Part shown: positions 1-63,999 of the stretch, in pieces
Layout: every line of letters starts with the position of its first letter
Position numbering within the stretch: the stretch's first letter is position 1
Assembly (NCBI GenBank): GCA_964016885.1
Contig: OZ024748.1
Coordinates: 26,288,001-26,352,000 of the forward strand
Direction of reading: 5' to 3'
Source: Eledone cirrhosa
Taxonomy: Eukaryota
DNA: 64,000 nucleotides
Notes under the pieces: generated by a model
Databases searched by the model: none
Seen by the model: the letters and a program-made list of their open reading frames with translations, nothing else
What the model was told of the DNA's origin: nothing
Translations under genes and position numbers: made by a program

Positions 1-3000
1 GAAGAAACAACTCTGTCTACTCAGGTAGAGGACATCGAAAAGGTGACACCAACACAAGTTGCTAGCACAATGCATACATCACCTGAAACAACAGTTGTTT
101 CATCTCCTGAACACACCTCTATAACAATTACAGATGAACTTACTAGTATTGAATATACAACTGAGACATCAACTGAAAAACCACTACCTATCAAGACACC
201 TACAAGCACAGCAGAAAAGATCACTGAAACTAGAACAGACACAACAGCAACAACATCACAGCTTCCTTCAACAAGTGAAATCCATATAGAAACTCCTAAA
301 TCTACTTCTGAACTGCCTCATATAACTGACATTGAAACAAGTACAGTGGAAAGAACAACACAAATTACAGATATTGAAACTGAACGCACAACTCAGACAG
401 AAATTACACCACAACAAACAACATCTCCTGAAGAAACAACTCTGTCTACTCAGGTAGAGGACATCGAAAAGGTGACACCAACACAAGTTGCTAGCACAAT
501 GCATACATCACCTGAAACAACAGTTGTTTCATCTCCTGAACACACCTCTATAACAATTACAGATGAACTTACTAGTATTGAATATACAACTGAGACATCC
601 ACTGAAAAACCACTACCTATAAAGACACCTACAAGCACAGCTGAAAAGATCACTGAAACTATAACAGACACAACAGCAACAACATCACAGCTTCCTTCAA
701 CAAGTGAAATCCATATAGAAACTCCTAAATCTACTTCTGAACTGCCTCATATAACTGACATTGAAACAAGTACAGTGGAAAGAACAACACAAGTTACAGA
801 TATTGAAACTGAACGCACAACTCAGACAGAAATTACACCACAACTAACAACATCTCCTGAAGAAACAACTCTGTCTACTCAGGTAGAGGACATCGAAAAG
901 GTGACACCAACAACAGTTGTTTCATCTCCTGAACACACCTCTATAACACCTACAGATGAACTTACTAGTATTGAATATACAACTGAGACATCAACTGAAA
1001 AACCACTACCTATCAAGACACATACAAGCACAGCAGAAAAGATCACTGAAACTAGAACAGACACAACAGCAACAACATCACAGGTTCCTTCAACAAGTGA
1101 AATCCATATAGAAACTCATAAATCTACTTCTGAACTGCCTCATATAACTGACATTGAAACAAGTACAGTGGAAAGAACAACACAAGTTACAGATATTGAA
1201 ACTGAGCACACAACTCAGACAGAAATTACACCACAACAAACAACATCTCCTGAAGAAACAACACTGTCTACTCAGGTAGAGGACATCGTAAAGGTGACAC
1301 CAACACAAGTTGCTAGCACAATGCATACATCACCTGAAACAACAGTTTTTTCATCTCCAGAACACACCTCTATAACACCTACAGATGAACTTATTAGTAT
1401 TGAATATACAACTGAGACATCAACTGAAAAACCACTACCTATCAAGACACCTACAAGCACAGCAGAAAAGATCACTGAAACTAGAACAGACACAACAGCA
1501 ACAACATCACAGCTTCCTTCAACAAGTGAAATCCATATAGAAACTCCTAAATCTACTTCTGAACTGCCTCATATAACTGACGTTGAAACGAGTACAGTGG
1601 AAAGAACAACACAAGTTACAGATATTGAAACTGAACGCACAACTCAGACAGAAATTACACCACAACTAACAACATCACCTGAAGAAACAACTCTGTCTAC
1701 TCAGGTAGAGGACATCGAAAAGGTGACACCAACAACAGTTGTTTTATCTCCTGAACACACCTCTATAACACCTACAGATGAACTTACTAGTATGGAATAT
1801 ACAACTGAGACATCAACTGAAAAACCACTACCTATAAAGACACCTACAAGCACAGCTGAAAAGATCACTGAAACTATAACAGACACAACAGCAACAACAT
1901 CACAGCTTCCTTCAACAACTGAAATCCATATAGAAACTCCTAAATCTACTTCTGAACTGCCTCATATAACTGACATTGAAACAAGTACAGTGGAAAGAAC
2001 AACACACGTTACAGATATTGAAACTGAACGCACAACTCAGACAGAAATTACACCACAACTAACAACATCTCCTGAAGAAACAACTCTGTCTACTCAGGTA
2101 GAGGACATCGAAAAGGTGACACCAACAACAGTTGTTTCATCTCCTGAACACACCTCTATAACACCTACAGATGAACTTACTAGTATTGAATATACAACTG
2201 AGACATCAACTGAAAAACCACTACCTATCAAGACACCTACAAGCACAGCTGAAAAGATCACTGAAACTATAACAGACACAACAGCAACAACATCACAGCT
2301 TCCTTCAACAAGTGAAATCCATATAGAAACTCATAAATCTACTTCTGAACTGCCTCATATAACAGACATTGAAACAAGTACAATGGAAAGAACAACACAA
2401 ATTACAGATATTGAAACTGAACGCACAACTCAGACAGAAATTACACCACAACTAACAACATCTCCTGAAGAAACAACTCTGTCTACTCAGGTAGAGGACA
2501 TCGAAAAGGTGCCACCAACACAAGTTGCTAGTACAATGCATACATCACCTGAAAGGACAGTTGTTTCATCTCCAGAACACACCTCTATAACACCTACAGA
2601 TGAACTTACTAGTATTGAATATAGAACTGAGACATCAACTGAAAAATCACTACCTACGATAACACCTAGAAGCACAGCAGAAAAGACCACTGAAACTATA
2701 ACAGACACAACAGCAACAACATCACAGCTTCCTTCAACAAGTGAAATCCATATAGAAACTCCTAAATCTACTTCTGAACTGCCTCATATAACTGACATTG
2801 AAACAAGTACAGCGGAAAGGACAACACAAATTACAGATATTGAAACTGAACGCACAACTCAGACAGAAATTAGACCACAACTAACAACATCTCCTGAAGA
2901 AACAACTCTGTCTACTCAGGTAGAGGACATCGTAAAGGTGACACCAACACAAATTGCTAGCACAATGCATACATCACCTGAAACAACAGTTGTTTCATCT

Positions 3001-21000: not shown

Positions 21001-24000
21001 AGGATCACTGAAACTAGAACAGACACAACAGCAACAACATCACAGCTTCCTTCAACAAGTGAAATCCATATAGAAACTCCTAAATCTACTTCTGAACTGC
21101 CTCATATAACTGACATTGAAACAAGTACAGCGGAAAGGACAACACAAATTACAGATATTGAAACTGAACGCACAACTCAGACAGAAATTACACCACAACT
21201 AACAACATCTCCTGAAGAAACAACTCTGTCTACTCAGGTAGAGGACATCGTAAAGGTGACACCAACACAAATTGCTAGCACAATGCATACATCACCTGAA
21301 ACAACAGTCGTTTCATCTCCAGAACACACCTCTATACCACCTACAGATGAAATTACTAGTATTGAATATACAACTGAGACATCAACTGAAAAACCACTAC
21401 CTATAAAGACACCTACAAGCACAGCAGAAAAGATCACTGAAACTAGAACAGACACAACAGCAACAACATCACAGCTTCCTTTAACAAGTGAAATCCATAT
21501 AGAAACTCCTAAATCTACTTCTGAACTGCCTCATATAACTGACATTGAAACAAGTACAGTGGAAAGAACAACACAAATTACAGATATTGAAACTGAACGC
21601 ACAACTCAGACAGAAATTACACCACAACTAACAACATCTCCTGAAGAAACAACTCTGTCTACTCAGGTAGAGGACATCGAAAGGGTGACACCAACACAAG
21701 TTGCTAGCACAATGCATACATCACCTGAAACAACAGTTGTTTCATCTCCAGAACACACCTCTATAACACCTACAGATGAACTTAGTAGTATTGAATATAC
21801 AACTGTGACATCAACTGAAACACCACTACCTATAAAGACACCTACAAGCACAGCTGAAAAGATCATTGAAACTATAACAGACACAACAGCAACAACATCA
21901 CAGCTTCCTTCAACAAGTGAAATCCATATAGAAATTCCTAAATCTAGTTCTGAACTGCCTCATATAACTGACATTGAAACAAGTACAGTGGAAAGAACAA
22001 CACAAGTTACAGATATTGAAACTGAGCGCACAACTCGGACAGAAATTACATCACAACAAACAACATCTCCTGAAGAAACAACACTGTCTACTCAGGTAGA
22101 GGACATCGTAAAGGTGACACCAACACAAGTTGCTAGCACAATGCATACATCACCAGAAACAAAAGTTGTTTCATCTGAACACACCTCTATAACACCTACA
22201 GATGAACTTACTAGTATTGAATATAGAACTGAGACATCAACTGAAAAATCACTACCTACAATAACACCTACAACCACAGCAGAAAAGATCACTGAAACTA
22301 GAACAAACACAACACCAACAACATCACAGCTTCCTTCAACAAGTGAAATCCATATAGAAACTCCTAAATCTACTTCTGAACTGCCTCATATAACTGACAT
22401 TGAAACAAGTACAGTGGAAAGAACAACACAAGTTACAGATATTGAAACTGAGCGCACAACTCAGACAGAAATTACACCACAACAAACAACATCTCCTGAA
22501 GAAACAACACTGTCTACTCAGGTAGAGGACATCGTAAAGGTGACACCAACACAAGTTGCTAGCACAATGCATACATCACCTGAAACAACAGTTGTTTCAT
22601 CTCCAGAACACACCTCTATAACACCTACAGATGAACTTACTAGTATTGAATATACAACTGAGACATCAACTGAAAAACCACTACCTATAAAGACACCTAC
22701 AAGCACAGCTGAAAGGATCACTGAAACTAGAACAGACACAACAGCAACAACATCACAGCTTCCTTCAACAAGTGAAATCCATATAGAAACTCCTAAATCT
22801 ACTTCTGAACTGCCTCATATAACTGACATTGAAACAAGTACAATGGAAAGAACAACACAAATTACAGATATTGAAACTGAACGCACAACTCAGACAGAAA
22901 TTAGACCACAACTAACAACATCTCCTGAAGAAACAACTCTGTCTACTCAGGTAGAGGACATCGAAAGGGTGACACCAACACAAGTTGCTAGCACAATGCA
23001 TACATCACCTGAAACAACAGTTGTTTCATCTCCAGAACACACCTCTATAACACCTACAGATGAACTTACTAGTATTGAATATACAACTGAGACATCAACT
23101 GAAAAACCACTACCTATAAAGACACCTACAAGCACAGCAGAAAAGATCACTGAAACTAGAACAGACACAACAGCAACAACATCACAGCTTCCTTCAACAA
23201 GTGAAATCCATATAGAAACTCCTAAATCTACATCTGAAATGCCTCATATAACTGACATTGAAACAAGTACAGTGGAAAGAACAACACAAGTTACAGATAT
23301 TGAAACTGAGCGCACAACTCAGACAGAAATTACACCACAACAAACAACATCTCCTGAAGAAACAACACTGTCTACTCAGGTAGAGGACATCGTAAAGGTG
23401 ACAGCAACACAAGTTGCTAGCACAATGCATACATCACCTGAAACGACAGTTGTTTCATCTCCTGAACACACCTCTATAACACCTACAGATGAACTTACTA
23501 GTATTGAATATACAACTGAGACATCAACTGAAAAACCACTACCTATAAAGACACCTACAAGCACAGCTGAAAAGATCACTGAAACTATAACAGACACAAC
23601 AGCAACAACATCACAGCTTCCTTCAACAAGTGAAATCCATATAGAAACTCCTAAATCTACTTCTGACCTGCCTCATATAACTGACATTGAAACAAGTACA
23701 GTGGAAAGAACAACACACGTTACAGATATTGAAACTGAACGCACAACTCAGACAGAAATTACACCACAACTAACAACATCTCCTGAAGAAACAACTCTGT
23801 CTACTCAGGTAGAGGACATCGAAAAGGTGACACCAACAACAGTTGTTTCATCTCCTGAACACACCTCTATAACACCTACAGATGAACTTACTAGTATTGA
23901 ATATACAACTGAGACATCAACTGAAAAACCACTACCTATCAAGACACCTACAAGCACAGCTGAAAAGATCACTGAAACTATAACAGACACAACAGCAACA

Positions 24001-27000
24001 ACATCACAGCTTCCTTCAACAAGTGAAATCCATATAGAAACACATAAATCTACTTCTGAACTGCCTCATATAACAGACATTGAAACAAGTACAATGGAAA
24101 GAACAACACAAATTACAGATATTGAAACTGAACGCACAACTCAGACAGAAATTACACCACAACTAACAACATCTCCTGAAGAAACAACTTTGTCTACTCA
24201 GGTAGAGGACATCGAAAAGGTGCCACCAACACAAGTTGCTAGTACAATGCATACATCACCTGAAACGACAGTTGTTTCATCTCCAGAACACACCTCTATA
24301 ACACCTACAGATGAACTTAGTAGTATTGAATATACAACTGTGACATCAACTGAAACACCACTACCTATAAAGACACCTACAAGCACAGCTGAAAAGATCA
24401 CTGAAACTATAACAGACACAACAGCAACAACATCACAGCTTCCTTCAACAAGTGAAATCCATATAGAAACTCCTAAATCTACTTCTGAACTGCCTCATAT
24501 AACTGACATTGAAACAAGTACAGTGGAAAGAACAACACAAGTTACAGATATTGAAACTGAGCGCACAACTCGGACAGAAATTACATCACAACAAACAACA
24601 TCTCCTGAAGAAACAACACTGTCTACTCAGGTAGAGGACATCGTAAAGGTGACACCAACACAAGTTGCTAGCACAATGCATACATCACCTGAAACAACAG
24701 TTGTTTCATCTCCAGAACACACCTCTATAACACCTACACATGAACTTACTAGTATTGAATATAGAACTGAGACATCAACTGAAAAATCACTACCTACGAT
24801 AACACCTACAAGCACAGCTGAAAAGATCACTGAAACTAGAACATACACAACACCAACAACATCACAGCTTCCTTCAACAAGTGAAATCCATATAGAAACT
24901 CCTAAATCTACTTCTGAACTGCCTCATATAACAGACATTGAAACAAGTACAATGGAAAGAACAACACAAATTACAGATCTTGAAACTGAACGCACAACTC
25001 AGACAGAAATTACACCACAACTAACAACATCTCCTGAAGAAACAACTCTGTCTACTCAGGTAGAGGACATCGAAAAGGTGACACCAACACAAGTTGCTAG
25101 CACAATGCATACATCACCTGAAACAAAAGTTGTTTCATCTGAACACACCTCTATAACACCTACAGATGAACTTACTAGTATTGAATATAGAACTGAGACA
25201 TCAACTGAAAAATCACTACCTACGATAACACCTACAAGCACAGCAGAAAAGATCACTGAAACTAGAACAGACACAACACCAACAACATCACAGCTTCCTT
25301 CAACAAGTGAAATCCATATAGAAACTCCTAAATCTACTTCTGAACTGCCTCATATAACTGACATTGAAACAAGTACAGCGGAAAGGACAACACAAATTAC
25401 AGATATTGAAACTGAACGCACAACTCAGACAGAAATTACACCACAACTAACAACATCTCCTGAAGAAACAACTCTGTCTACTCAGGTAGAGGACATCGTA
25501 AAGGTGACACCAACACAAATTGCTAGCACAATGGATACATCACCTGAAACAACAGTTGTTTCATCTCCAGAACACACCTCTATACCACCTACAGATGAAA
25601 TTACTAGTATTGAATATACAACTGAGACATCAACTGAAAAACCACTACCTATAAAGACACCTACAAGCACAGCAGAAAAAATCACTGAAACTAGAACAGA
25701 CACAACAGCAACAACATCACAGCTTCCTTTAACAAGTGAAATCCATATAGAAACTCCTAAATCTACTTCTGAACTGCCTCATATAACTGACATTGAAACA
25801 AGTACAGTGGAAAGAACACAAATTACAGATATTGAAACTGAACGCACAACTCAGACAGAAATTACACCACAACTAACAACATCTCCTGAAGAAACAACTC
25901 TGTCTACTCAGGTAGAGGACATCGAAAGGGTGACACCAACACAAGTTGCTAGCACAATGCATACATCACCTGAAACAACAGTTGTTTCATCTCCAGAACA
26001 CACCTCTATAACACCTACAGATGAACTTAGTAGTATTGAATATACAACTGTGACATCAACTGAAACACCACTACCTATAAAGACACCTACAAGCACAGCT
26101 GAAAAGATCACTGAAACTATAACAGACACAACAGCAACAACATCACAGCTTCCTTCAACAAGTGAAATCCATATAGAAACTCCTAAATCTAGTTCTGAAC
26201 TGCCTCATATAACTGACATTGAAACAAGTACAGTGGAAAGAACAACACAAGTTACAGATATTGAAACTGAGCGCACAACTCGGACAGAAATTACATCACA
26301 ACAAACAACATCTCCTGAAGAAACAACACTGTCTACTCAGGTAGAGGACATCGTAAAGGTGACACCAACACAAGTTGCTAGCACAATGCATACATCACCT
26401 GAAACAAAAGTTGTTTCATCTGAACACACCTCTATAACACCTACAGATGAACTTACTAGTATTGAATATAGAACTGAGACATCAACTGAAAAATCACTAC
26501 CTACAATAACACCTACAACCACAGCAGAAAAGATCACTGAAACTAGAACAAACACAACACCAACAACATCACAGCTTCCTTCAACAAGTGAAATCCATAT
26601 AGAAACTCCTAAATCTACTTCTGGACTGCCTCATATAACTGTCATTGAAACAAGTACAGTGGAAAGAACAACACAAGTTACAGATATTGAAACTGAGCGC
26701 ACAACTCAGACAGAAATTACACCACAACAAACAACATCTCCTGAAGAAACAACACTGTCTACTCAAGTAGAGGACATCGTAAAGGTGACACCAACACAAG
26801 TTGCTAGCACAATGCATACATCACCTGAAACAACAGTTGTTTCATCTCCAGAACACACCTCTATAACACCTACAGATGAACTTACTAGTATTGAATATAC
26901 AACTGAGACATCAACTGAAAAACCACTACCTATAAAGACACCTACAAGCACAGCTGAAAGGATCACTGAAACTAGAACAGACACAACAGCAACAACATCA

Positions 27001-30000
27001 CAGCTTCCTTCAACAAGTGAAATCCATATAGAAACTCCTAAATCTACTTCTGAACTGCCTCATATAACTGACATTGAAACAAGTACAGCGGAAAGGACAA
27101 CACAAATTACAGATATTGAAACTGAACGCACAACTCAGACAGAAATTACACCACAACTAACAACATCTCCTGAAGAAACAACTCTGTCTACTCAGGTAGA
27201 GGACATCGTAAAGGTGACACCAACACAAATTGCTAGCACAATGCATACATCACCTGAAACAACAGTTGTTTCATCTCCAGAACACACCTCTATACCACCT
27301 ACAGATGAAATTACTAGTATTGAATATACAACTGAGACATCAACTGAAAAACCACTACCTATAAAGACACCTACAAGCACAGCAGAAAAGATCACTGAAA
27401 CTAGAACAGACACAACAGCAACAACATCACAGCTTCCTTTAACAAGTGAAATCCATATAGAAACTCCTAAATCTACTTCTGAACTGCCTCATATAACTGA
27501 CATTGAAACAAGTACAGTGGAAAGAACAACACAAATTACAGATATTGAAACTGAACGCACAACTCAGACAGAAATTACACCACAACTAACAACATCTCCT
27601 GAAGAAACAACTCTGTCTACTCAGGTAGAGGACATCGAAAGGGTGACACCAACACAAGTTGCTAGCACAATGCATACATCACCTGAAACAACAGTTGTTT
27701 CATCTCCAGAACACACCTCTATAACACCTACAGATGAACTTAGTAGTATTGAATATACAACTGTGACATCAACTGAAACACCACTACCTATAAAGACACC
27801 TACAAGCACAGCTGAAAAGATCATTGAAACTATAACAGACACAACAGCAACAACATCACAGCTTCCTTCAACAAGTGAAATCCATATAGAAATTCCTAAA
27901 TCTAGTTCTGAACTGCCTCATATAACTGACATTGAAACAAGTACAGTGGAAAGAACAACACAAGTTACAGATATTGAAACTGAGCGCACAACTCGGACAG
28001 AAATTACATCACAACAAACAACATCTCCTGAAGAAACAACACTGTCTACTCAGGTAGAGGACATCGTAAAGGTGACACCAACACAAGTTGCTAGCACAAT
28101 GCATACATCACCAGAAACAAAAGTTGTTTCATCTGAACACACCTCTATAACACCTACAGATGAACTTACTAGTATTGAATATAGAACTGAGACATCAACT
28201 GAAAAATCACTACCTACAATAACACCTACAACCACAGCAGAAAAGATCACTGAAACTAGAACAAACACAACACCAACAACATCACAGCTTCCTTCAACAA
28301 GTGAAATCCATATAGAAACTCCTAAATCTACTTCTGAACTGCCTCATATAACTGACATTGAAACAAGTACAGTGGAAAGAACAACACAAGTTACAGATAT
28401 TGAAACTGAGCGCACAACTCAGACAGAAATTACACCACAACAAACAACATCTCCTGAAGAAACAACACTGTCTACTCAGGTAGAGGACATCGTAAAGGTG
28501 ACACCAACACAAGTTGCTAGCACAATGCATACATCACCTGAAACAACAGTTGTTTCATCTCCAGAACACACCTCTATAACACCTACAGATGAACTTACTA
28601 GTATTGAATATACAACTGAGACATCAACTGAAAAACCACTACCTATAAAGACACCTACAAGCACAGCTGAAAGGATCACTGAAACTAGAACAGACACAAC
28701 AGCAACAACATCACAGCTTCCTTCAACAAGTGAAATCCATATAGAAACTCCTAAATCTACTTCTGAACTGCCTCATATAACTGACATTGAAACAAGTACA
28801 ATGGAAAGAACAACACAAATTACAGATATTGAAACTGAACGCACAACTCAGACAGAAATTAGACCACAACTAACAACATCTCCTGAAGAAACAACTCTGT
28901 CTACTCAGGTAGAGGACATCGAAAGGGTGACACCAACACAAGTTGCTAGCACAATGCATACATCACCTGAAACAACAGTTGTTTCATCTCCAGAACACAC
29001 CTCTATAACACCTACAGATGAACTTACTAGTATTGAATATACAACTGAGACATCAACTGAAAAACCACTACCTATAAAGACACCTACAAGCACAGCAGAA
29101 AAGATCACTGAAACTAGAACAGACACAACAGCAACAACATCACAGCTTCCTTCAACAAGTGAAATCCATATAGAAACTCCTAAATCTACATCTGAAATGC
29201 CTCATATAACTGACATTGAAACAAGTACAGTGGAAAGAACAACACAAGTTACAGATATTGAAACTGAGCGCACAACTCAGACAGAAATTACACCACAACA
29301 AACAACATCTCCTGAAGAAACAACACTGTCTACTCAGGTAGAGGACATCGTAAAGGTGACAGCAACACAAGTTGCTAGCACAATGCATACATCACCTGAA
29401 ACGACAGTTGTTTCATCTCCTGAACACACCTCTATAACACCTACAGATGAACTTACTAGTATTGAATATACAACTGAGACATCAACTGAAAAACCACTAC
29501 CTATAAAGACACCTACAAGCACAGCTGAAAAGATCACTGAAACTATAACAGACACAACAGCAACAACATCACAGCTTCCTTCAACAAGTGAAATCCATAT
29601 AGAAACTCCTAAATCTACTTCTGACCTGCCTCATATAACTGACATTGAAACAAGTACAGTGGAAAGAACAACACACGTTACAGATATTGAAACTGAACGC
29701 ACAACTCAGACAGAAATTACACCACAACTAACAACATCTCCTGAAGAAACAACTCTGTCTACTCAGGTAGAGGACATCGAAAAGGTGACACCAACAACAG
29801 TTGTTTCATCTCCTGAACACACCTCTATAACACCTACAGATGAACTTACTAGTATTGAATATACAACTGAGACATCAACTGAAAAACCACTACCTATCAA
29901 GACACCTACAAGCACAGCTGAAAAGATCACTGAAACTATAACAGACACAACAGCAACAACATCACAGCTTCCTTCAACAAGTGAAATCCATATAGAAACA

Positions 30001-33000
30001 CATAAATCTACTTCTGAACTGCCTCATATAACAGACATTGAAACAAGTACAATGGAAAGAACAACACAAATTACAGATATTGAAACTGAACGCACAACTC
30101 AGACAGAAATTACACCACAACTAACAACATCTCCTGAAGAAACAACTTTGTCTACTCAGGTAGAGGACATCGAAAAGGTGCCACCAACACAAGTTGCTAG
30201 TACAATGCATACATCACCTGAAACGACAGTTGTTTCATCTCCAGAACACACCTCTATAACACCTACAGATGAACTTAGTAGTATTGAATATACAACTGTG
30301 ACATCAACTGAAACACCACTACCTATAAAGACACCTACAAGCACAGCTGAAAAGATCACTGAAACTATAACAGACACAACAGCAACAACATCACAGCTTC
30401 CTTCAACAAGTGAAATCCATATAGAAACTCCTAAATCTACTTCTGAACTGCCTCATATAACTGACATTGAAACAAGTACAGTGGAAAGAACAACACAAGT
30501 TACAGATATTGAAACTGAGCGCACAACTCGGACAGAAATTACATCACAACAAACAACATCTCCTGAAGAAACAACACTGTCTACTCAGGTAGAGGACATC
30601 GTAAAGGTGACACCAACACAAGTTGCTAGCACAATGCATACATCACCTGAAACAACAGTTGTTTCATCTCCAGAACACACCTCTATAACACCTACACATG
30701 AACTTACTAGTATTGAATATAGAACTGAGACATCAACTGAAAAATCACTACCTACGATAACACCTACAAGCACAGCTGAAAAGATCACTGAAACTAGAAC
30801 ATACACAACACCAACAACATCACAGCTTCCTTCAACAAGTGAAATCCATATAGAAACTCCTAAATCTACTTCTGAACTGCCTCATATAACAGACATTGAA
30901 ACAAGTACAATGGAAAGAACAATACAAATTACAGATCTTGAAACTGAACGCACAACTCAGACAGAAATTACACCACAACTAACAACATCTCCTGAAGAAA
31001 CAACTCTGTCTACTCAGGTAGAGGACATCGAAAAGGTGACACCAACACAAGTTGCTAGCACAATGCATACATCACCTGAAACAAAAGTTGTTTCATCTGA
31101 ACACACCTCTATAACACCTACAGATGAACTTACTAGTATTGAATATAGAACTGAGACATCAACTGAAAAATCACTACCTACGATAACACCTACAAGCACA
31201 GCAGAAAAGATCACTGAAACTAGAACAGACACAACACCAACAACATCACAGCTTCCTTCAACAAGTGAAATCCATATAGAAACTCCTAAATCTACTTCTG
31301 AACTGCCTCATATAACTGACATTGAAACAAGTACAGTGGAAAGAACAACACAAGTTACAGATATTGAAACTGAGCGCACAACTCAGACAGAAATTACACC
31401 ACAACAAACAACATCTCCTGAAGAAACAACACTGTCTACTCAGGTAGAGGACATCGTAAAGGTGACACCAACACAAGTTGCTAGCACAATGCATACATCA
31501 CCTGAAACAACAGTTGTTTCATCTCCAGAACACACCTCTATAACACCTACAGATGAACTTACTAGTATTGAATATACAACTGAGACATCAACTGAAAAAC
31601 CACTACCTATAAATACACCTACGAGCACAGCTGAAAAGATCACTGAAACTAGAACAGACACAACAGCAACAACATCACAGCTTCGTTCAACAAGTGAAAT
31701 CCATATAGAAACTCCTAAATCTACTTCTGAACTGCCTCATATAACTGACATTGAAACAAGTACAGTGGAAAGAACAACACAAATTACAGATATTGAAATT
31801 GAACGCACAACTCAGACAGAAATTACACCACAACTAACAACATCTCCTGAAGAAACAACTCTGTCTACTCAGGTAGAGGACATCGAAAATGTGACACCAA
31901 CACAAGTTGCTAGCACAATGCATATATCACCTGAAACGACAGTTGTTTCATCTCCAGAACTCACCTCCATAACACCTACAGATGAACTTACTAGTATTGA
32001 ATATACAACTGCGACATCAACTGAAAAACCACTACCTATAAAGACACCTACAAGCACAGCTGAAAAGATCACTGAAACTATAACAGACACAACAGCAACA
32101 ACATCACAGCTTCCTTCAACAAGTGAAATCCATATAGAAACTCCTAAATCTACTTCTGAACTGCCTCATATAACTGACATTGAAACAAGTACAATGGAAA
32201 GAACAACACAAATTACAGATATTGAAACTGAACGCACAACTCAGACAGAAATTACACCACAACTAACAACATCTCCTGAAGAAACAACTCTGTCTACTCA
32301 GGTAGAGGACATCGAAAAGGTGACACCAACACAAGTTGCTAGCACAATGCATACATCACCTGAAACAAAAGTTGTTTCATCTCCTGAACACACCTCTATA
32401 ACACTTACAGATGAACTTACTAGTATTGAATATAGAACTGAGACATCAACTGAAAAATCACTACCTACGATAACACCTACAAGCACAGCAGAAAAGATCA
32501 CTGAAACTAGAACAGACACAACACCAACAACATCATCGCTTCCTTCAACAAGTGAAATCCATATAGAAACTCCTAAATCTACTTCTGAACTGCCTCATAT
32601 AACTGACATTGAAACAAGTACAGTGGAAAGAACAACACAAATTACAGATATTGAAACTGAACGCACAACTCAGACAGAAATTACACCACAACTAACAACA
32701 TCTCCTGAAGAAACAACTCTGTCTACTCAGGTAGAGGACATCGAAAGGGTGACACCAACACAAGTTGCTAGCACAATGCATACATCACCTGAAACAACAG
32801 TTGTTTCATCTCCAGAATACACCTCTATAACACCTACAGATGAACTTACTAGTATTGAATATACAACTGAGACATCAACTGAAAAACCACTACCTATAAA
32901 GACACCTACAAGCACAGCTGAAAAGATCACTGAAACTATAACAGACACAACAGCAACAACAACACAGCTTCCTTCAACAAGTGAAATCCATATAGAAACT

Positions 33001-36000
33001 CCTAAATCTACTTCTGAACTGCCTCATATAACTGACATTGAAACAAGTACAGTGGAAAGAACAACACAAGTTACAGATATTGAAACTGAGCGCACAACTC
33101 AGACAGAAATTACACCACAACAAACAACATCTCCTGAAGAAACAACACTGTCTACTCAGGTAGAGGACATCGTAAAGGTGACACCAACACAAGTTGCTAG
33201 CACAATGCATACATCACCTGAAACAACAGTTGTTTCATCTGAACACACCTCTATAACACCTACAGATGAACTTACTAGTATTGAATATAGAACTGAGACA
33301 TCAACTGAAAAATCACTACCTACGATAACACCTACAAGCACAGCAGAAAAGATCACTGAAACTAGAACAGACACAACACCAACAACATCACAGCTTCCTT
33401 CAACAAGTGAAATCCATATAGAAACTCCTAAATCTACTTCTGAACTGCCTCATATAACTGACATTGAAACAAGTACAGTGGAAAGAACAACACAAGTTAC
33501 AGATATTGAAACTGAGCGCACAACTCAGACAGAAATTACACCACAACAAACAACATCTCCTGAAGAAACAACACTGTCTACTCAGGTAGAGGACATCGTA
33601 AAGGTGACACCAACACAAGTTGCTAGCACAATGCATACATCACCTGAAACAACAGTTGTTTCATCTCCAGAACACACCTCTATAACACCTACAGATGAAC
33701 TTACTAGTATTGAATATACAACTGAGACATCAACTGAAAAACCACTACCTATAAAGACACCTACAAGCACAGCTGAAAAGATCACTGAAACTAGAACAGA
33801 CACAACAGCAACAACATCACAGCTTCCTTCAACAAGTGAAATCCATATAGAAACTCCTAAATCTACTTCTGAACTGCCTCATATAACTGACATTGAAACA
33901 AGTACAATGGAAAGAACAACACAAATTACAGATATTGAAACTGAACGAACAACTCAGACAGAAATTACACCACAACTAACAACATCTCCTGAAGAAACAA
34001 CTCTGTCTACTCGGGTAGAGGACATTGAAAAGGTGACACCAACACAAGTTGCTAGCACAATGCATACATCACCTGAAACAACAGTTGTTTCGTCTCGAGA
34101 ACACACCTCTATAACACCTACACATGAACTTACTAGTATTGAATATACAACTGAGACATCAACTGAAAAACCACTACCTATAAAGACACCTACAAGCACA
34201 GCTGAAAAGATCACTGAAACTAGAACAGACACAACAGCAACAACATCACAGCTTCCTTCAACAAGTGAAATCCATATAGAAACTCCTAAATCTACTTCTG
34301 AACTGCCTCATATAACTGACATTGAAACAAGTATAGTGGAAAGAACAACACAAATTACAGATATTGAAACTGAACGCACAACTCAGACAGAACTTACACC
34401 ACAACTAACAACATCTCCTGAAGAAACAACTCTGTCTACTCAGGTAGAGGACATTGAAAAGGTGACACCAACACAAGTTGCTAGCACAATGCATATATCA
34501 CCTGAAACAACAGTTGTTTCATCTCCAGAACACACCTCTATAACACCTACAGATGAACTTACTAGTATTGAATATACAACTGAGACATCAACTGAAAAAT
34601 CACTACCTACGATAACACCTACAAGCACAGCTGAAAATATCACTGAAACTATAACAGACACAACAGCAACAACATCACAGCTTCCTTCAACAAGTGAAAT
34701 CCATATAGAAACTCCTAAATCTACTTCTGAACTGCCTCATATAACTGACATTGAAACAAGTACAGTGGAAAGAACAACACAAGTTACAGATATTGAAACT
34801 GAACGCACAACTCAGACAGAAATTACACCACAACTAACAACATCTCCTGAAGAAACAACTCTGTCTACTCAGGTAGAGGACATCGAAAAGGTGACACCAA
34901 CACAAGTTGCTAGCACAATGCATACATCACCTGAAACAAAAGTTGTTTCATCTGAACACACCTCTATAACACCTACAGATGAACTTACTAGTATTGAATA
35001 TAGAACTGAGACATCAACTGAAAAATCACTACCTACGATAACACCTACAAGCACAGCAGAAAAGATCACTGAAACTAGAACAGACACAACACCAACAACA
35101 TCACAGCTTCCTTCAACAAGTGAAATCCATATAGAAACTCCTAAATCTACTTCTGAACTGCCTCATATAACTGACATTGAAACAAGTACAGTGGAAAGAA
35201 CAAGACAAGTTACAGATATTGAAACTGAGCGCACAACTCAGACAGAAATTACACCACAACAAACAACATCTCCTGAAGAAACAACACTGTCTACTCAGGT
35301 AGAGGACATCGTAAAGGTGACACCAACACAAGTTGCTAGCACAATGCATACATCACCTGAAACAACAGTTGTTTCATCTCCAGAACACACCTCTATAACA
35401 CCTACAGATGAACTAACCAGTATTGAATATACAACTGAGACATCAACTGAAAAACCACTACCTATAAAGACACCTACAAGCACAGCTGAAAAGATCACTG
35501 AAACTAGAACAGACACAACAGCAACAACTTCACAGCTTCCTTCAACAAGTGAAATCCATATAGAAACTCCTAAATCTACTTCTGAACTGCCTCATATAAC
35601 TGACATTGAAACAAGTACAGTGGAAAGAACAACACAAATTACAGATATTGAAATTGAACGCACAACTCAGACGGAAATTACACCACAACTAACAACATCT
35701 CCTGAAGAAACAACTCTGTCTACTCAGGTAGAGGACATCGAAAAGGTGACACCAACACAAGTTGCTAGCACAATGCATATATCACCTGAAACGACAGTTG
35801 TTTCATCTCCAGAACTCACCTCCATAACACCTACAGATGAACTTACTAGTATTGAATATACAACTGCGACATCAACTGAAAAACCACTACCTATAAAGAC
35901 ACCTACAAGCACAGCTGAAAAGATCACTGAAACTATAACAGACACAACAGCAACAACATCACAGCTTCCTTCAACAAGTGAAATCCATATAGAAACTCAT

Positions 36001-39000
36001 AAATCTACTTCTGAACTGCCTCATATAACAGACATTGAAACAAGTACAATGGAAAGAACAACACAAATTACAGATATTGAAACTGAACGCACAACTCAGA
36101 CAGAAATTACACCACAACTAACAACATCTCCTGAAGAAACAACTCTGTCTACTCAGGTAGAGGACATCGAAAAGGTGACACCAACACAAGTTGCTAGCAC
36201 AATGCATACATCACCTGAAACAAAAGTTGTTTCATCTGAACACACCTCTATAACACCTACAGATGAACTTACTAGTATTGAATATAGAACTGAGACATCA
36301 ACTGAAAAATCACTACCTACGATAACACCTACAAGCACAGCAGAAAAGATCACTGAAACTAGAACAGACACAACACCAACAACATCACAGCTTCCTTCAA
36401 CAAGTGAAATCCATATAGAAACTCCTAAATCTACTTCTGAACTGCCTCATATAACTGACATTGAAACAAGTACAGTGGAAAGAACAACACAAGTTACAGA
36501 TATTGAAACTGAGCGCACAACTCAGACAGAAATTACACCACAACAAACAACATCTCCTGAAGAAACAACACTGTCTACTCAGGTAGAGGACATCGTAAAG
36601 GTGACACCAACACAAGTTGCTAGCACAATGCATACATCACCTGAAACAAAAGTTGTTTCATCTCGAGAACACACCTCTATAACACCTACAGATGAACTTA
36701 CTAGTATTGAATATACAACTGAGACATCAACTGAAAAACCACTACCTATAAAGACACCTACAAGCACAGCAGAAAAGATCACTGAAACTAGAACAGACAC
36801 AACAGCAACAACATCACAGCTTCCTTCAACAAGTGAAATCCATATAGAAATTCCTAAATCTACTTCTGAACTGCCTCATATAACTGACATTGAAACTAGT
36901 ACAGTGGAAAGAACAACACAAATTACAGATATTGAAACTGAACGCACAACTCAGACAGAAATTACACCACAACTAACAACATCTCCTGAAGAAACAACTC
37001 TGTCTACTCAGGTAGAGGACATCGAAAAGGTGACACCAACACAAGTTGCTAGCACAATGCATATATCACCTGAAACGACAGTTGTTTCATCTCCAGAACT
37101 CACCTCCATAACACCTACAGATGAACTTACTAGTATTGAATATACAACTGCGACATCAACTGAAAAACCACTACCTAGAAAGACACCTACAAGCACAGCT
37201 GAAAAGATCACTGAAACTATAACAGACACAACAGCAACAACATCGCAGCTTCCTTCAACAAGTGAAATCCATATAGAAACTCATAAATCTACTTCTGAAC
37301 TGCCTCATATAACAGACATTGAAACAAGTACAATGGAAAGAACAACACAAATTACAGATATTGAAACTGAACGCACAACTCAGACAGAAATTACACCACA
37401 ACTAACAACATCTCCTGAAGAAACAACTCTGTCTACTCAGGTAGAGGACATCGAAAAGGTGACACCAACACAAGTTGCTAGCACAATGCATACATCACCT
37501 GAAACAACAGTTGTTTCATCTCCAGAACACACCTCTATAACACCTACAGATGAACTTACTAGTATTGTATATACAACTGAGACATCAACTGAAAAACCAC
37601 TACCTATAAAGACACCTACAAGCACAGCAGAAAAGATCACTGAAACTAGAACAGACACAACAGCAACAACATCACAGCTTCCTTCAACAAGTGAAATCCA
37701 TATAGAAACTCCTAAATCTACTTCTGAACTGCCTCATATAACTGACATTGAATCAAGTACAGTGGAAAGAACAACACAAATTACAGATATTGAAACTGAA
37801 CGCACAACTCAGACAGAAATTACACCACAACTAACAACATCTCCTGAAGAAACAACTCTGTCTACTCAGGTAGAGGACATTGAAAAGGTGACACCAACAC
37901 AAGTTGCTAGCACAATGCATACATCACCTGAAACGACAGATGTTTCATCTCCAGAACACACCTCTATAACACCTACAGATGAACTTACTAGTATTGAATA
38001 TACAACTGAGACATCAACTGAAAAACCACTACCTATCAAGACACCTACAAGCACAGCAGAAAAGATCACTGAAACTATAACAGACACAGCAGCAACAACA
38101 TCACAGCTTCCTTCAACAAGTGAAATCCATATAGAAACTCCTAAATCTACTTCTGAACTGCCTCATATAACAGACATTGAAACAAGTACAATGGAAAGAA
38201 CAACACAAATTACAGATATTGAAACTGAACGCACAACTCAGACAGAAATTACACCACAACTAACAACATCTCCTGAAGAAACAACTCTGTCTACTCAGAT
38301 AGAGGACATCAAAAAGGTGACACCAACACAAGTTGCTAGCACAATGCATACATCACCTGAAACAACAGTTGTTTCATCTCCAGAACACACCTCTATAACA
38401 CCTACAGATGAACTTACTAGTATTGTATATACAACTGAGACATCAACTGAAAAACCACTACCTATAAAGACACCTACAAGCACAGCAGAAAAGATCACTG
38501 AAACTAGAACAGACACAACAGCAACAACATCACAGCTTCCTTCAACAAGTGAAATCCATATAGAAACTCCTAAATCTACTTCTGAACTGCCTCATATAAC
38601 TGACATTGAAACAAGTACAGTGGAAAGAACAACACAAATTACAGATATTGAAACTGAACGCACAACTCAGACAGAAATTACAACACAACTAACAACATCT
38701 CCTGAAGAAACAACTCTGTCTACTCAGGTAGAGGACATTGAAAAGGTGACACCAACACAAGTTGCTAGCACAATGCATACATCACCTGAAACGACAGATG
38801 TTTCATCTCCAGAACACACCTCTATAACACCTACAGATGAACTTACTAGTATTGAATATACAACTGAGACATCAACTGAAAAACCACTACCTATCAAGAC
38901 ACCTACAAGCACAGCAGAAAAGATCACTGAAACTATAACAGACACAGCAGCAACAACATCACAGCTTCCTTCAACAAGTGAAATCCATATAGAAACTCCT

Positions 39001-42000
39001 AAATCTACTTCTGAACTGCCTCATATAACAGACATTGAAACAAGTACAATGGAAAGAACAACACAAATTACAGATCTTGAAACTGAACGCACAACTCAGA
39101 CAGAAATTACACCACAACTTACAACATCTCCTGAAGAAACAACTCTGTCTACTCGGGTAGAGGACATCGAAAAGGTGACACCAACACAAGTTGCTAGCAC
39201 AATGCATACATCACCTGAAACGACAGTTGTTTCATCTCCAGAACACACCTCTATAACACCTACAGATGAACCTACTAGTATTGAATATACAACTGAGACA
39301 TCAACTGAAAAACCACTACCTATCAAGACACCTACAAGCACAGCAGAAAAGATCACTGAAACTATAACAGACACAGCAGCAACAACATCACAGCTTGCTT
39401 CAACAAGTGAAATCCATATAGAAACTCCTAAATCTACTTCTGAACTGCCTCATATAACAGACATTGAAACAAGTACAATGGAAAGAACAACACAAATTAC
39501 AGATATTGAAACTGAACGCACAACTCAGACAGAAATTACACCACAACTAACAACATCTCCTGAAGAAACAACTCTGTCTACTCAGGTAGAGGACATCGAA
39601 AAGGTGACACCAACACAAGTTGCTAGCACAATGCATACATCACCTGAAACAACAGTTGTTTCATCTCCAGAACACACCTCTATAACACCTACAGATGAAC
39701 TTACTAGTATTGAATATACAACTGAGACATCAACTGAAAAACCACTACCTATAAAGACACCTACAAGCACAGCTGAAAAGATCACTGAAACAAAAACAGA
39801 CACAACAGCAACAACATCACAGCTTCCTTCAACAAGTGAAATCCATATAGAAACTCATAAATCTACTTCTGAACTGCCTCATATAACTGACATTGAAACA
39901 AGTACAGTGGAAAGAACAACACAAATTACAGATATTGAAACTGAACGCACAACTCAGACAGAAATTACACCACAACTAACAACATCTCCTGAAGAAACAA
40001 CTCTGTCTACTCAGGTAGAGGACATCGAAAAGGTGACACCAACACAAGTTGCTAGCACAATGCATACATCACCTGAAACAACAGTTGTTTCATCTCCAGA
40101 ACACACCTCTATAACACCTACAGATGAACTTACTAGTATTGAATATACAACTGAGACATCAACTGAAAAACTACTACCTAGAAAGACACCTACAAGCACA
40201 GCTGAAAAGATCACTGAAACTATAACAGACACAACAGCAACAACATCGCAGCTTCCTTCAACAAGTGAAATCCATATAGAAACTCATAAATCTACTTCTG
40301 AACTGCCTCATATAACAGACATTGAAACAAGTACAATGGAAAGAACAACACAAATTACAGATATTGAAACTGAACGCACAACTCAGACAGAAATTACACC
40401 ACAACTAACAACATCTCCTGAAGAAACAACTCTGTCTACTCAGGTAGAGGACATCGAAAAGGTGACACCAACACAAGTTGCTAGCACAATGCATATATCA
40501 CCTGAAACGACAGTTGTTTCATCTCCAGAACTCACCTCCATAACACCTACAGATGAACTTACTAGTATTGAATATACAACTGCGACATCAACTGAAAAAC
40601 CACTACCTAGAAAGACACCTACAAGCACAGCTGAAAAGATCACTGAAACTATAACAGACACAACAGCAACAACATCGCAGCTTCCTTCAACAAGTGAAAT
40701 CCATATAGAAACTCATAAATCTACTTCTGAACTGCCTCATATAACAGACATTGAAACAAGTACAATGGAAAGAACAACACAAATTACAGATATTGAAACT
40801 GAACGCACAACTCAGACAGAAATTACACCACAACTAACAACATCTCCTGAAGAAACAACTCTGTCTACTCAGGTAGAGGACATCGAAAAGGTGACACCAA
40901 CACAAGTTGCTAGCACAATGCATACATCACCTGAAACAACAGTTGTTTCATCTCCAGAACACACCTCTATAACACCTACAGATGAACTTACTAGTATTGT
41001 ATATACAACTGAGACATCAACTGAAAAACCACTACCTATAAAGACACCTACAAGCACAGCAGAAAAGATCACTGAAACTAGAACAGACACAACAGCAACA
41101 ACATCACAGCTTCCTTCAACAAGTGAAATCCATATAGAAACTCCTAAATCTACTTCTGAACTGCCTCATATAACTGACATTGAATCAAGTACAGTGGAAA
41201 GAACAACACAAATTACAGATATTGAAACTGAACGCACAACTCAGACAGAAATTACACCACAACTAACAACATCTCCTGAAGAAACAACTCTGTCTACTCA
41301 GGTAGAGGACATTGAAAAGGTGACACCAACACAAGTTGCTAGCACAATGCATACATCACCTGAAACGACAGATGTTTCATCTCCAGAACACACCTCTATA
41401 ACACCTACAGATGAACTTACTAGTATTGAATATACAACTGAGACATCAACTGAAAAACCACTACCTATCAAGACACCTACAAGCACAGCAGAAAAGATCA
41501 CTGAAACTATAACAGACACAGCAGCAACAACATCACAGCTTCCTTCAACAAGTGAAATCCATATAGAAACTCCTAAATCTACTTCTGAACTGCCTCATAT
41601 AACAGACATTGAAACAAGTACAATGGAAAGAATAACACAAATTACAGATCTTGAAACTGAACGCACAATTCAGACAGAAATTACACCACAACTAACAACA
41701 TCTCCTGAAGAAACAACTCTGTCTACTCAGGTAGAGGACATCGAAATGGTGACACCAACACAAGTTGCTAGCACAATGCATACATCACCTGAAACAACAG
41801 TTGTTTCATCTCCCGAAAACACCTCTATAACACCTACACATGAACTTACTAGTATTGAATATACAACTGAGACATCAACTGAAAAACCACTACCTATAAA
41901 GACACCTACAAGCACAGCTGAAAAGATCACTGAAACTAGAACAGACACAACAGCAACAACATCACAGCTTCCTTCAACAAGTGAAATCCATATAGAAACT

Positions 42001-63000: not shown

Positions 63001-63999
63001 CATATAGAAACTCCTAAATCTACTTCTGAACTGCCTCATATAACTGACATTGAAACAAGTACAGTGGAAAGAACAACACAAATTACAGATATTGAAACTG
63101 AACGCACAACTCAGACAGAAATTACACCACAACTAACAACATCTCCTGAAGAAACAACTCTGTCTACTCAGGTAGAGGACATCGAAAAGGTGACACCAAC
63201 ACAAGTTGCTAGCACAATGCATACATCACCTGAAACAACAGTTGTTTCATCTCCTGAACACACCTCTATAACAATTACAGATGAACTTACTAGTATTGAA
63301 TATACAACTGAGACATCAACTGAAAAACCATTACCTATCAAGACACCTACAAGCACAGCTGAAAAGATCACTGAAACTAGAACAGACACAACAGCAACAA
63401 CATCACAGCGTCCTTCAACAAGTGAAATCCATATAGAAACTCCTAAATCTACTTCTGAACTGCCTCATATAACTGACATTGAAACAAGTACAGTGGAAAG
63501 AACAACACAAATTACAGATATTGAAACTGAACGCACAACTCAGACAGAAATTACACCACAACTAACAACATCTCCTGAAGAATCAACTCTGTCTACTCAG
63601 GTAGAGGACATCGAAAAGGTGACACCAACAACAGTTGTTTCATCTCCTGAACACACCTCTATAACACCTACAGATGAACTTACTAGTATTGAATATACAA
63701 CTGAGACATCAACTGAAAAACCACTACCTATCAAGACACATACAAGCACAGCAGAAAAGATCACTGAAACTAGAACAGACACAATAGCAACAACATCACA
63801 GCTTCCTTCAACAAGTGAAATCCATATAGAAACTCCTAAATCTACTTCTGAACTGCCTCATATAACTGACATTGAAACAAGTACAGTGGAAAGAACAACA
63901 CAAGTTACAGATATTGAAACTGAGCGCACAACTCAGACAGAAATTACACCACAACAAACAACATCTCCTGAAGAAACAACACTGTCTACTCAGGTAGAG
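1..63999 (+). CDS. Internal fragment (open at both ends) of a giant mucin-like PTS/acidic tandem-repeat protein, about 21,333 codons in frame +1
   Basis: Manual translation of frame +1 gives a 143-aa unit. Unit 1 has 43 T, 16 S, 11 P, 20 E, 5 D, 5 K, 3 R and 4 H, and no C/G/W/F/N; P+T+S is about 49%. Unit anchors (the antisense stop positions 21, 450, 879, 1272 ... 63597) are all multiples of 3, so the frame never shifts. I saw no in-frame stop while reading. The ORF track has no + strand ORF even though most units contain an in-frame ATG, which is what a caller requiring a terminal stop would give if none exists in the window. Confidence 0.88.
7441..9786 (+). repeat. Higher-order duplication of ~4000-6345 (about 5.5 units; offset 3,441 bp = 8 units)
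   Basis: Units at 4203/4635/5067/5499/5928 match 7644/8076/8508/8940/9369, including three consecutive 432-bp units and the VKPT, SPKH, DIKRVTA and STEER variants. Confidence 0.92.
12784..16803 (+). repeat. Higher-order duplication of positions ~1-4020 (about 9.5 units; offset 12,783 bp = 30 units)
   Basis: The order of unit lengths (429,429,393,429,393,393,429...) and of private variants (ITIT, KTH, VFSS, SMEY, VPPT/ERT, YTTV/ETPL) is the same in both copies. Few differences were seen, e.g. GAT vs GCT near 14953 and ATT vs CTT near 16246. Confidence 0.93.
19339..31336 (+). repeat. Direct tandem duplication of a 14-unit block (period 5,958 bp)
   Basis: Anchors 19524..25056 map one-to-one onto 25482..31014 at +5958. 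The indel pattern and private variants are shared (IPPT, SGLP/ITVI, RTNT, IIET, RTYT). I noticed only about three differences (near 25534, 27267 and 30923). Confidence 0.95.
41826..45736 (+). repeat. Higher-order duplication of ~34110-38020 (about 9 units; offset 7,716 bp = 18 units)
   Basis: Shared private markers at +7716: agt ata gtg (~34330/~42046), gaactaaccagt (~35410/~43126), acaacttca, cagacggaa, tctcgagaa, gaaactagtaca and gaatcaagt. The two 426-bp units also fall in the same positions. Confidence 0.9.
61800..62560 (+). repeat. Local duplication of ~60085-60845 (offset 1,716 bp = 4 units)
   Basis: The private variants actgtgcgc, tctcccgaacac and tcaacagaaaaa recur at +1716. End points are approximate. 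Confidence 0.7.

Follow-up and report, generated by a model that had tools for sequence, protein, structure and literature searches.

The 64,000-nucleotide stretch of Eledone cirrhosa DNA analysed here (the window) raises the question of whether a tandem repeat that lacks stop codons in one frame is satellite DNA, open by accident, or part of a very large coding exon and, if it is coding, what kind of protein it could specify. Translation of frame +1 (positions 1-63999) gives 21,333 codons and 0 stops, as an earlier note had claimed; the remaining five frames contain 461–2,529 stops each, and their longest open runs are 23–123 aa. The window is a continuous tandem array of a 429-bp (143-aa) unit, with 149 whole units and, again as claimed, no non-repeat interruption; it contains no N and no Rfam match. 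Both ends of the frame had been placed outside the window. They were found by extension into the flanks: in two independent determinations the stop-free frame spans G000:C8:26254023-26553722, with 99,900 codons and 0 in-frame stops. Its mass (10.85 MDa per 99,900 aa) agrees with the figure of about 2.3 MDa put forward for the window.

The earlier note had kept both a eukaryotic and a prokaryotic origin in play. The genome is that of an animal (3.0 Gb), the nearest proteins are from octopods and the gene is split by introns, which excludes a prokaryotic surface-protein gene. The single coding exon of at least 64 kb that was envisaged for a eukaryote measures 299,571 bp, and its 5′ splice junction is present in sequencing run X4. 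We put the probability at about two in three that the window lies inside this stop-free stretch, whose 5′ end is spliced to a von Willebrand factor A (VWA) exon and which likely forms one coding exon of an octopod gene for a predicted secreted, mucin-like glycoprotein with VWA-fold ends. This reading draws on the open frame, on splice signals that are in phase at either end, on the 5′ junction, on the lack of stops and frameshifts in the array and on membership of an octopod protein family.

Structure of the gene

The giant exon begins 33.9 kb upstream of the window and ends 201.7 kb downstream of it. A short unique start is followed by about 6,700 aa of short Thr/Pro/Gly repeats, about 350 aa of unique sequence, the main 143-aa array (codons about 7,219–93,322), a Thr/Pro-rich spacer of about 400 aa, a second, more diverged array (to about codon 99,434) and a unique Ser/Thr-rich tail of about 400 aa. 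Ser and Thr make up 42.5% of the exon, Pro 8% and Gly 0.6% (0.02% in the window); the net charge is about −10,250, and five scattered Cys occur in 99,856 residues, with none in the last coding exon. Thr/Ser-rich tandem repeats within a coding exon, one criterion in a functional definition of mucins (PMC9417175), are thus present, with 637 repeat anchors in the exon. That definition further includes heavy O-glycosylation, a secreted or surface location and retention of Thr and Ser by selection. Repeat comparisons used 628 units derived from these anchors, leaving out 8 inter-anchor intervals of 290–549 aa. A Pfam match of the repeat to DUF7109 (E = 1e-6) was taken as compositional.

Table 1 Features of the gene and their coordinates
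Feature	Position	Strand	Description
Giant-exon portion in window	1..63999	+	Codons 11,289-32,621; 149 whole 143-aa units (429 bp), Thr/Glu/Ser-rich
Predicted micro-exon	C8:26239073-26239103	+	31 nt, phase 0 to 1; likely end of signal peptide
VWA exon	C8:26251515-26252066	+	552 bp, phase 1-1, with an intact MIDAS; PF00092, E 4e-33; upstream of window
VWA-to-giant-exon intron	C8:26252067-26254134	+	2,068 bp, GT..AG; skipped in X4 contig
Giant exon	G000:C8:26254135-26553705	+	299,571 bp = 99,857 codons, phase 1-1; AG acceptor, GTAAG donor
Predicted 3′ intron	C8:26553706-26555817	+	2,112 bp, GT..AG; downstream of window
Last coding exon	C8:26555818-26556398	+	581 bp; VWA fold, degenerate and lacking MIDAS; terminates at the stop codon

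The flanks have the gene structure that a coding reading calls for: the VWA exon upstream, the giant exon and the terminal VWA-fold exon downstream splice in frame into 100,233 aa plus a stop, giving a predicted product of about 100,250 aa and 10.9 MDa. In a contig of run X4 (record 9), L007:4066 is joined to 6135 over 324 + 321 nt with 0 mismatches, which links the end of the VWA exon exactly to the first base of the giant exon. This support consists of one contig, at depth 4.9, from one run of unrecorded type. Within the intron, 5 of 16 wholly internal bins are at X4 depth 0 and the others hold dispersed repeats; X1 covers all of them. The 5′-most 228 nt of the VWA exon are without X4 cover, and run X8 has only short repeat-like pieces. 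Among the joints displayed in this comparison, none skips the giant exon. For the 3′ region, the fraction of words found in X4 is 0.53, and the fraction possible for a spliced transcript is 0.47–0.53. The 3′ junction, with the last base of the giant exon as donor, is seen in two Octopus annotations.

Secretion is predicted: family members have signal-like N termini, and the locus holds a candidate micro-exon. In the octopod family the signal peptide is taken to be divided between a first exon and such a micro-exon. The 31-nt candidate was picked by eye and was not returned by a scan; 6 of 10 paralogues have micro-exon candidates of 22–28 nt, with the same phases, ahead of their VWA exon. For the first (signal peptide) exon, three scans produced only unconvincing candidates, the 79 kb covered, including a 200-N gap, did not yield it, and a search with eight family signal peptides gave no match.

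An octopod family with VWA domains at both ends

The gene belongs to an octopod family in which a Pro/Thr/Ser (PTS) linker exon between phase-1 introns separates two VWA domains, an arrangement also present here. All 10 other matches to the second domain (VWA2) in the genome have a VWA1 partner 3–16 kb upstream, and 8 of these 10 pairs enclose a Pro/Thr/Ser frame. The VWA1 exon, with an intact MIDAS, is 36–45% identical to nine paralogue exons and 86% identical to protein P0013; it lacks the closing Cys that occurs in paralogues. The degenerate VWA2 of the last exon is 29–39% identical to 10 paralogue exons and 79% and 76% identical to Octopus proteins. A hydrophobic signal-like N-terminal peptide occurs in 8 of 10 family proteins examined, the remaining two models being incomplete. 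Uncharacterised octopod proteins with the order signal peptide–VWA–PTS–VWA (XP_029634555.2, XP_014768754.1, XP_014771412.1, CAI9721419.1 and GAB1599319.1) share both end domains, exon order and phases with this gene. They differ in scale: family linkers are about 70–310 aa (in the 9 of 10 proteins that have one) compared with 99,857 codons here, at least 300 times the linker of any full-length member seen.

Two Octopus proteins, XP_014785251.1 and CAI9735081.1 (P0001 and P0002), are orthologue fragments. They share the 3′ junction, are 50–51% identical in the tail and 43–47% in the repeat unit, and group with this gene in the tree (support 100/100). Their models, of 862 and 885 aa, begin inside the repeat, so the true exon in Octopus may exceed them. 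This fits the earlier expectation that annotation would miss such a region, and suggests that annotation truncates genes of this kind.

Selection on the frame and alternative readings

From end to end the array is free of stops and frameshifts, to a degree far beyond chance. In a repeat-aware test on the 149 units of the window, with the expectation taken from the rate at which other changes occur, 0 distinct stop variants were found against 11.0 expected (P0 = 3e-6). Of the 44 one-base stop changes open to the 628 units, 26.3 would be expected and none occurs (P0 about 7e-19, taking distinct variants as independent); in the other five frames, used as controls, 153 of 316 stop-type changes occur. 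These variant counts leave out 10 multi-step codon variants. Two single-unit changes that appeared to be of stop type at the base level proved to be multi-base changes giving Ser and Leu. Of the indel classes listed, 11 of 11 are multiples of three, a few of them being one event aligned two ways. Each sixth of the array is stop-depleted on its own (P0 = 1e-5, 3e-4, 4e-4, 1e-3, 2e-3 and 4e-8), so every part of it is likely to be translated at least sometimes. Missense changes are as frequent as silent ones (439/919 versus 148/324, P = 0.56), and losses of Thr (125 versus 131.3 expected) and Ser (42 versus 50.5) are barely and not significantly below expectation; constraint on composition is therefore not demonstrated. 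Selection would seem to preserve the frame and not the sequence.

That the array is non-coding satellite DNA, with a unit that happens to be stop-free in one frame, could be argued from flanking satellites, which have stop-free runs of 700–2,270 codons in several frames at once, and from the parity of silent and missense changes. The stop-change counts in the array and the control frames establish coding DNA instead, and the exclusively in-frame indels and the spliced X4 contig likewise refute the satellite reading; with in-phase splice sites and orthologous coding repeats in two Octopus species, its chances are close to nil. It is also improbable that the exon is giant and the assembly overstates its length, having looped through copies or concatenated two haplotypes at joins that would keep the frame. 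The similarity of the units (95.7% alike, with an identical twin for 264 of 628) and one 30-unit block (12.8 kb) repeated with 5 differences would favour such an error; however, 470 of the 628 units (201 kb) are distinct, 91% of 2-kb words are unique and the longest exact repeat, 5,333 bp, is shorter than the usual long reads. Unit similarity falls with distance, a pattern that natural arrays show; at separations of at least 60 units the longest colinear runs do not exceed 5 units, the array holds no N, and scored repeat copies all lie at one locus (40 of 630 candidates, and 150 of 1,819 in a second search). A duplication of one half against the other, as from two haplotypes, left no sign in the unit-similarity and colinearity comparisons.

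Two further alternatives accept a coding gene. In one, which we judge unlikely, mature mRNAs retain only parts of the exon through internal splicing or early polyadenylation, yielding a ladder of shorter mucins. A length of 300 kb far exceeds the range over which exon definition is known to work, which counts for this view. Shorter in-frame isoforms are possible because weak sites recur in the units: there are 1,101 phase-0 donor-like sites (weak CAG|GTAG occurs 573 times in phase 0), acceptor-like sites by a pyrimidine rule (39 in phase 1 and 26 in phase 0), and a weaker phase-1 acceptor-like site, in the phase of the VWA donor, that is present 378 times; ATTAAA occurs 36 times in the array. 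The array, however, has just 2 strong donors and no AATAAA, although one-step routes within the unit to a polyadenylation signal and a strong splice donor number only 1 and 2, and we do not ascribe the absence of AATAAA to selection. The boundaries in use are the exon's own: in X4 its first base serves as acceptor, and in two Octopus annotations the corresponding last base serves as donor. The stop depletion of every sixth speaks against partial-exon mRNAs, and early termination would abolish selection on the units downstream. The other alternative, that the giant chain is made but serves as a component of a structural matrix or cement (dermis, cartilage or egg attachment) and not as a gel-former of surface mucus, is rather doubtful. 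By fold, the C-terminal domain resembles collagen VI, integrin I domains and the mussel byssus protein PTMP1, and family members are named collagen-like in databases; yet the Thr/Ser/Pro-rich exon, without collagen or a folded repeat, accounts for 99.6% of the chain, and snail and octopus mucus are reported to contain VWA proteins (PMC10475054, PMC11431876). Neither of these two observations settles the tissue. A matrix or cement role differs in function only, and its gene structure overlaps that of the mucin-like reading.

Comparison with known mucins and giant proteins

Gel-forming mucins (MUC2/5AC/5B/6/19) are built from VWD–C8–TIL assemblies with CysD inserts and a C-terminal cystine knot, and in tethered mucins (MUC1/4/12/16) the repeats are followed by a SEA or EGF domain, a membrane helix and a tail. 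The parts of this gene downstream of the micro-exon have none of the gel-forming features, with a VWA domain and the few scattered Cys instead, and the last exon is a VWA fold that ends in a stop. None of the end domains guessed in the earlier note (VWD/C8/TIL, CysD, SEA, EGF, chitin-binding, transmembrane or LPXTG) was found; one end has a VWA domain and the other a degenerate VWA fold. Collagen VI, collagen XXVIII and matrilin have a Gly-X-Y triple helix, or EGF domains plus a coiled coil; the low Gly content argues against this class, and the parts scanned have no such Pfam match. The byssus protein PTMP1 has two VWA domains. It and the VWA proteins of gastropod mucus (PMC10475054) resemble this predicted product as secreted mollusc proteins with VWA-fold domains but lack a giant linker, and a fold likeness at 18–19% identity is not orthology.

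The vertebrate VNTR mucins MUC12, MUC4, MUC2 and MUC5AC/B, which differ in their end domains as described above, likewise keep one large Thr/Ser/Pro repeat exon in frame (PMC13345508). In that source, the longest MUC12 allele encodes 23,080 aa and is called the largest human exon; this is about the size of the window and dates the human exons that had served as the benchmark, and the exon described here is more than four times as long. In Pajic et al. 2022 (PMC9417175), lineage-specific mucins arise by gain of exonic repeats, and residues other than Thr and Ser change at about the neutral rate. The gain of Thr/Ser-rich exonic repeats in one lineage is as here; by comparison with those mucins, this gene has about 640 units of 143 aa, folded VWA caps and Thr/Ser retention that is not significant.

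Titin, PKZILLA-1 (45,212 aa, 17 exons, with proteomic support) and the Omnitrophota giants (predicted at up to 147,155 aa; bacterial, unspliced and multi-domain) are alike in size class only. The product described here is an animal one, likely secreted, a disordered repeat chain in one exon, and predicted. At over twice PKZILLA-1 it would be among the largest known proteins, as judged from sequence, although not the longest predicted overall, the Omnitrophota proteins being larger. A literature search that covered mainly journals open without subscription turned up neither this gene nor any eukaryotic exon of greater length, so the claim to a record is provisional.

A putative product and its implications

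The ancestor was probably a small secreted VWA–linker–VWA protein, whose Pro/Thr/Ser linker exon may have expanded by unequal crossing-over of the 429-bp unit. Each unit gained stays in frame because the exon is symmetric and the unit is a multiple of three. The present product would be a strongly acidic, O-glycosylated chain of bottle-brush form, with a length of some 25–38 micrometres. Its metal-binding N-terminal VWA domain and degenerate C-terminal one could tie the chain to partners or to other copies, and in this way one chain alone could reach gel-forming size, whereas gel-forming mucins rely on polymerisation through disulfides. In the examined part of one octopus skin-mucus table (PMC10138644), neither four peptide motifs nor the identifiers of the orthologues had a match.

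We lean, with some reserve, towards the 299.6-kb exon being spliced whole into an mRNA of more than 300 kb, from which a single secreted chain of about 100,250 residues is made that forms a gel by its length and by links through its VWA ends; these would be the largest exon and the largest eukaryotic protein. If made whole, they are likely the largest exon and the largest animal protein yet described. The ceiling for exons would then rise over fourfold (the MUC12 allele amounts to at most about 69 kb by arithmetic) and that for eukaryotic polypeptides over twofold, relative to PKZILLA-1. The gene is a natural test case for how splice sites separated by a 300-kb exon are paired by the spliceosome, for how such an mRNA escapes early cleavage and is exported, and for the fraction of ribosomes that complete 100,000 codons. 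By arithmetic, translation at 5 residues per second takes about 5.5 h, and a drop-off of 1e-5 per codon lets 37% of ribosomes finish, whereas at 1e-4 almost none do. The small paralogues, with the same ends and linkers hundreds of times shorter, provide built-in controls.

A guarded reading frame across the array

The window, located in a 3.0-Gb genome, is a tandem array with a unit of 429 bp, and translation bears out the claim of the earlier note that its frame +1 is open throughout, with 0 stops in 21,333 codons (461 to 2,529 in each of the remaining five frames). The translation is dominated by Thr (30%), Glu (14%) and Ser (11%) and is also rich in Ile and Pro. Followed into the flanks, as that note had proposed, the frame stays open for 99,900 codons and contains no N; a genome-wide search gives the identical length.

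A stop-free frame alone is no proof of coding, because a perfectly repeated stop-free unit stays open. We analysed variants in 628 units of 637 anchors, counting each possible one-base change once. The units are 95.7% alike pairwise and 470 are distinct. Non-stop changes are seen in 587 of 1,243 possible cases and stop changes in 0 of 44, compared with 26.3 expected at matched mutation types (P ~ 7 × 10−19; 10−12 unweighted); the other five frames show 153 of their 316 stop-creating changes. The deficit is present in every sixth of the array and also among single-unit variants (7.6 expected). Two of the latter look like stops at base level; both alter more than one base, and they encode Ser and Leu. 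Each of the 11 indel classes listed has a length divisible by three. Missense changes occur as often as silent ones (P = 0.56) and Thr/Ser residues are lost at close to the expected rate, both of which speak against strong protein-level constraint; by simple count, gains of Cys (2 versus 6.6 expected) and Gly (13 versus 20.6) seem low. Because stops and frameshifts are absent and missense changes are as common as silent ones, the frame is guarded over the whole length of the array while its residues drift. We put the probability that this is a real coding exon at about 95%.

Gene anatomy

The single coding exon of at least 64 kb that the note had envisaged is, as now predicted, bounded by in-frame splice signals almost 300 kb apart. 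Joined in frame with the exons on either side, it yields 100,233 amino acids.

Features of the locus and related loci in the Eledone cirrhosa assembly (contig C8 unless another is given)
Feature	Position	Size	Remarks
Window	26288001-26352000	64,000 nt	
Open frame	26254023-26553722	99,900 codons	
AT-rich microsatellite (L003-L005)	26210000-26232400	~20 kb	upstream of micro-exon
Assembly gap	26223315-26223514	200 N	within microsatellite
Candidate micro-exon	12.4 kb further upstream than VWA1	31 nt	would give end of signal peptide
VWA1 exon	2,068 bp upstream of giant exon	552 bp	phase 1; PF00092, E = 4e-33
Giant exon	AG acceptor at 26254135; GTAAG donor after 26553705	299,571 bp	multiple of three; phase 1 at both ends
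Thr/Pro-rich spacer (L029)	26534100-26535400		single break in array
Last exon (VWA2)	2,112 bp downstream of giant exon	581 bp	ends in stop
Flanking satellites (also L040, L071)	26653380-26660630; 26647762-26649974		700-2,272 codons without a stop, in several frames; useful as a negative control when long frames are judged in this genome
Ten small paralogues (L041-L060)	C1:280.42-280.75 Mb; C15:8.09-8.12 Mb; C37:53.7-63.1 kb		seven in one cluster
Tandem VWA exons	C107:10289-152060		~65, near-identical; spacing 1.6-3.3 kb; small contig
Similar VWA exons	C4:319.99-320.89 Mb	0.9 Mb	ten, both strands

A search of the ends found a VWA domain upstream, with intact metal-binding residues; the VWD/C8/TIL-type architecture guessed at earlier did not hold, and the gene belongs to neither the gel-forming nor the tethered mucin families. 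Pfam gave no clear match to the last exon, and its predicted model (pLDDT 80.8) resembles the VWA folds of collagen VI, integrin I domains and mussel PTMP1. Scans of the DNA upstream of the micro-exon found no first exon, which may lie in or beyond the gap and microsatellite.

The giant exon runs from ~6,700 amino acids of Thr/Pro/Gly repeats through a short unique stretch to ~86,000 amino acids of the 143-residue unit, after which come a Thr/Pro spacer, a further array that is diverged, and a tail of unique sequence. The whole open frame amounts to 10.85 MDa, with 42.5% Ser + Thr, a net charge of about −10,250 and 5 Cys. Distinct variants number 318 in the last sixth of the array and 162-186 in each other sixth, which suggests greater age towards the 3′ edge.

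Array length and splicing

Could the array be an assembly product, or be removed piecemeal from the transcript? No exact repeat in it exceeds 5,333 bp, 91% of 2-kb words occur once, divergence between units rises with distance, no colinear run at 60 or more units apart exceeds 5 units, and the distinct units alone total 201 kb. Higher-order periods occur at 7-8, 14, 25 and 30 units. One 30-unit block (12,783 bp; giant exon nucleotides ~24,000-40,000, overlapping the window start) is repeated with 5 differences and could be a recent duplication or a ~13-kb assembly slip. An exon of ~300 kb as assembled is highly probable.

What chiefly competes with an intact exon is splicing inside the array, which may well use weak in-frame sites of the unit. 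None of the 11 sequencing runs listed is on record as RNA; four of them were aligned to L007:3200-6900, the stretch with the VWA1 exon and giant-exon start. In X4, whose contigs total 88 Mb and come from a different sample of the same organism, a 645-nt contig at depth 4.9 joins the last 324 nt of the VWA1 exon to the first 321 nt of the giant exon with 0 differences, exactly at the predicted splice sites; X1 reads on through this intron. From this one contig in one run, we infer that X4 is cDNA. For the 3′ region, the fraction of words present in X4 is 0.53; a spliced transcript could hold 0.47-0.53. X5, from another organism, contains a VWA1 relative (47 differences in 791 nt). Annotated XP_014785251.1 (O. 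bimaculoides) and CAI9735081.1 (O. vulgaris) share the repeat unit and have the junction between tail and last exon at the identical position; both models begin inside repeats. The VWA1 orthologue P0013 (86% match) ends two residues past the VWA1 exon end, which would fit a donor in the corresponding position that has been read through. On balance we lean towards retention of the entire giant exon in some mRNA and protein at least.

Proposed function and published giants

The symmetric linker exon would have grown by unequal crossing-over, in frame every time. The protein is predicted to enter the secretory path, with many of its 42,432 Ser/Thr O-glycosylated. An extended chain spans 0.25-0.38 nm per residue, and the product would be an extended, acidic brush with a length of 25-38 micrometres. 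With next to no Cys, it would lack the means by which gel-forming mucins polymerise; chain length plus VWA ends might serve instead. It likely works as a mucin. The VWA1 exon (end at L007:4060-4070) and P0013 stop before the closing Cys of most paralogues and carry a second Cys elsewhere; an unpaired Cys could link chains. VWA proteins are reported from snail and octopus mucus (PMC10475054, PMC11431876), and a route to lineage-specific mucins has been described (PMC9417175).

Among published giants, the longest MUC12 allele has 23,080 amino acids and is called the largest human exon (PMC13345508); PKZILLA-1, bigger than titin, has 45,212 in 17 exons (bioRxiv 10.1101/2024.01.29.577497); and predicted Omnitrophota proteins reach 147,155, earlier 85,804 (bioRxiv 10.64898/2026.06.07.730766). 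Neither this gene nor any larger eukaryotic exon came up in a literature search of partial coverage.

An octopod VWA-PTS-VWA family

The last exon has 10 further matches in the assembly, and each of them is preceded at 3-16 kb by a VWA1-like exon in the same orientation; in 8 cases a Pro/Thr/Ser (PTS) frame of ~60-240 amino acids lies between the two. A profile search with a limit of E = 0.001 returned 227 proteins, 20 of them at 1e-30; 8 of the 10 looked up among the best 13 are from Octopus or Argonauta. Full-length members (468-707 amino acids) consist of signal peptide, VWA, linker and VWA; their database names are absent or collagen-like. In a tree of 23 C-terminal domains, this gene groups with the two annotated Octopus fragments at 100/100, and 6 of 10 paralogues have a protein from Octopus or Argonauta as their partner. 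This is apparently a secreted octopod family without prior description, of which the present gene is an extreme member. The tandem VWA exons on C107 may belong to a single giant multi-VWA gene, or may be an array that is collapsed or expanded.
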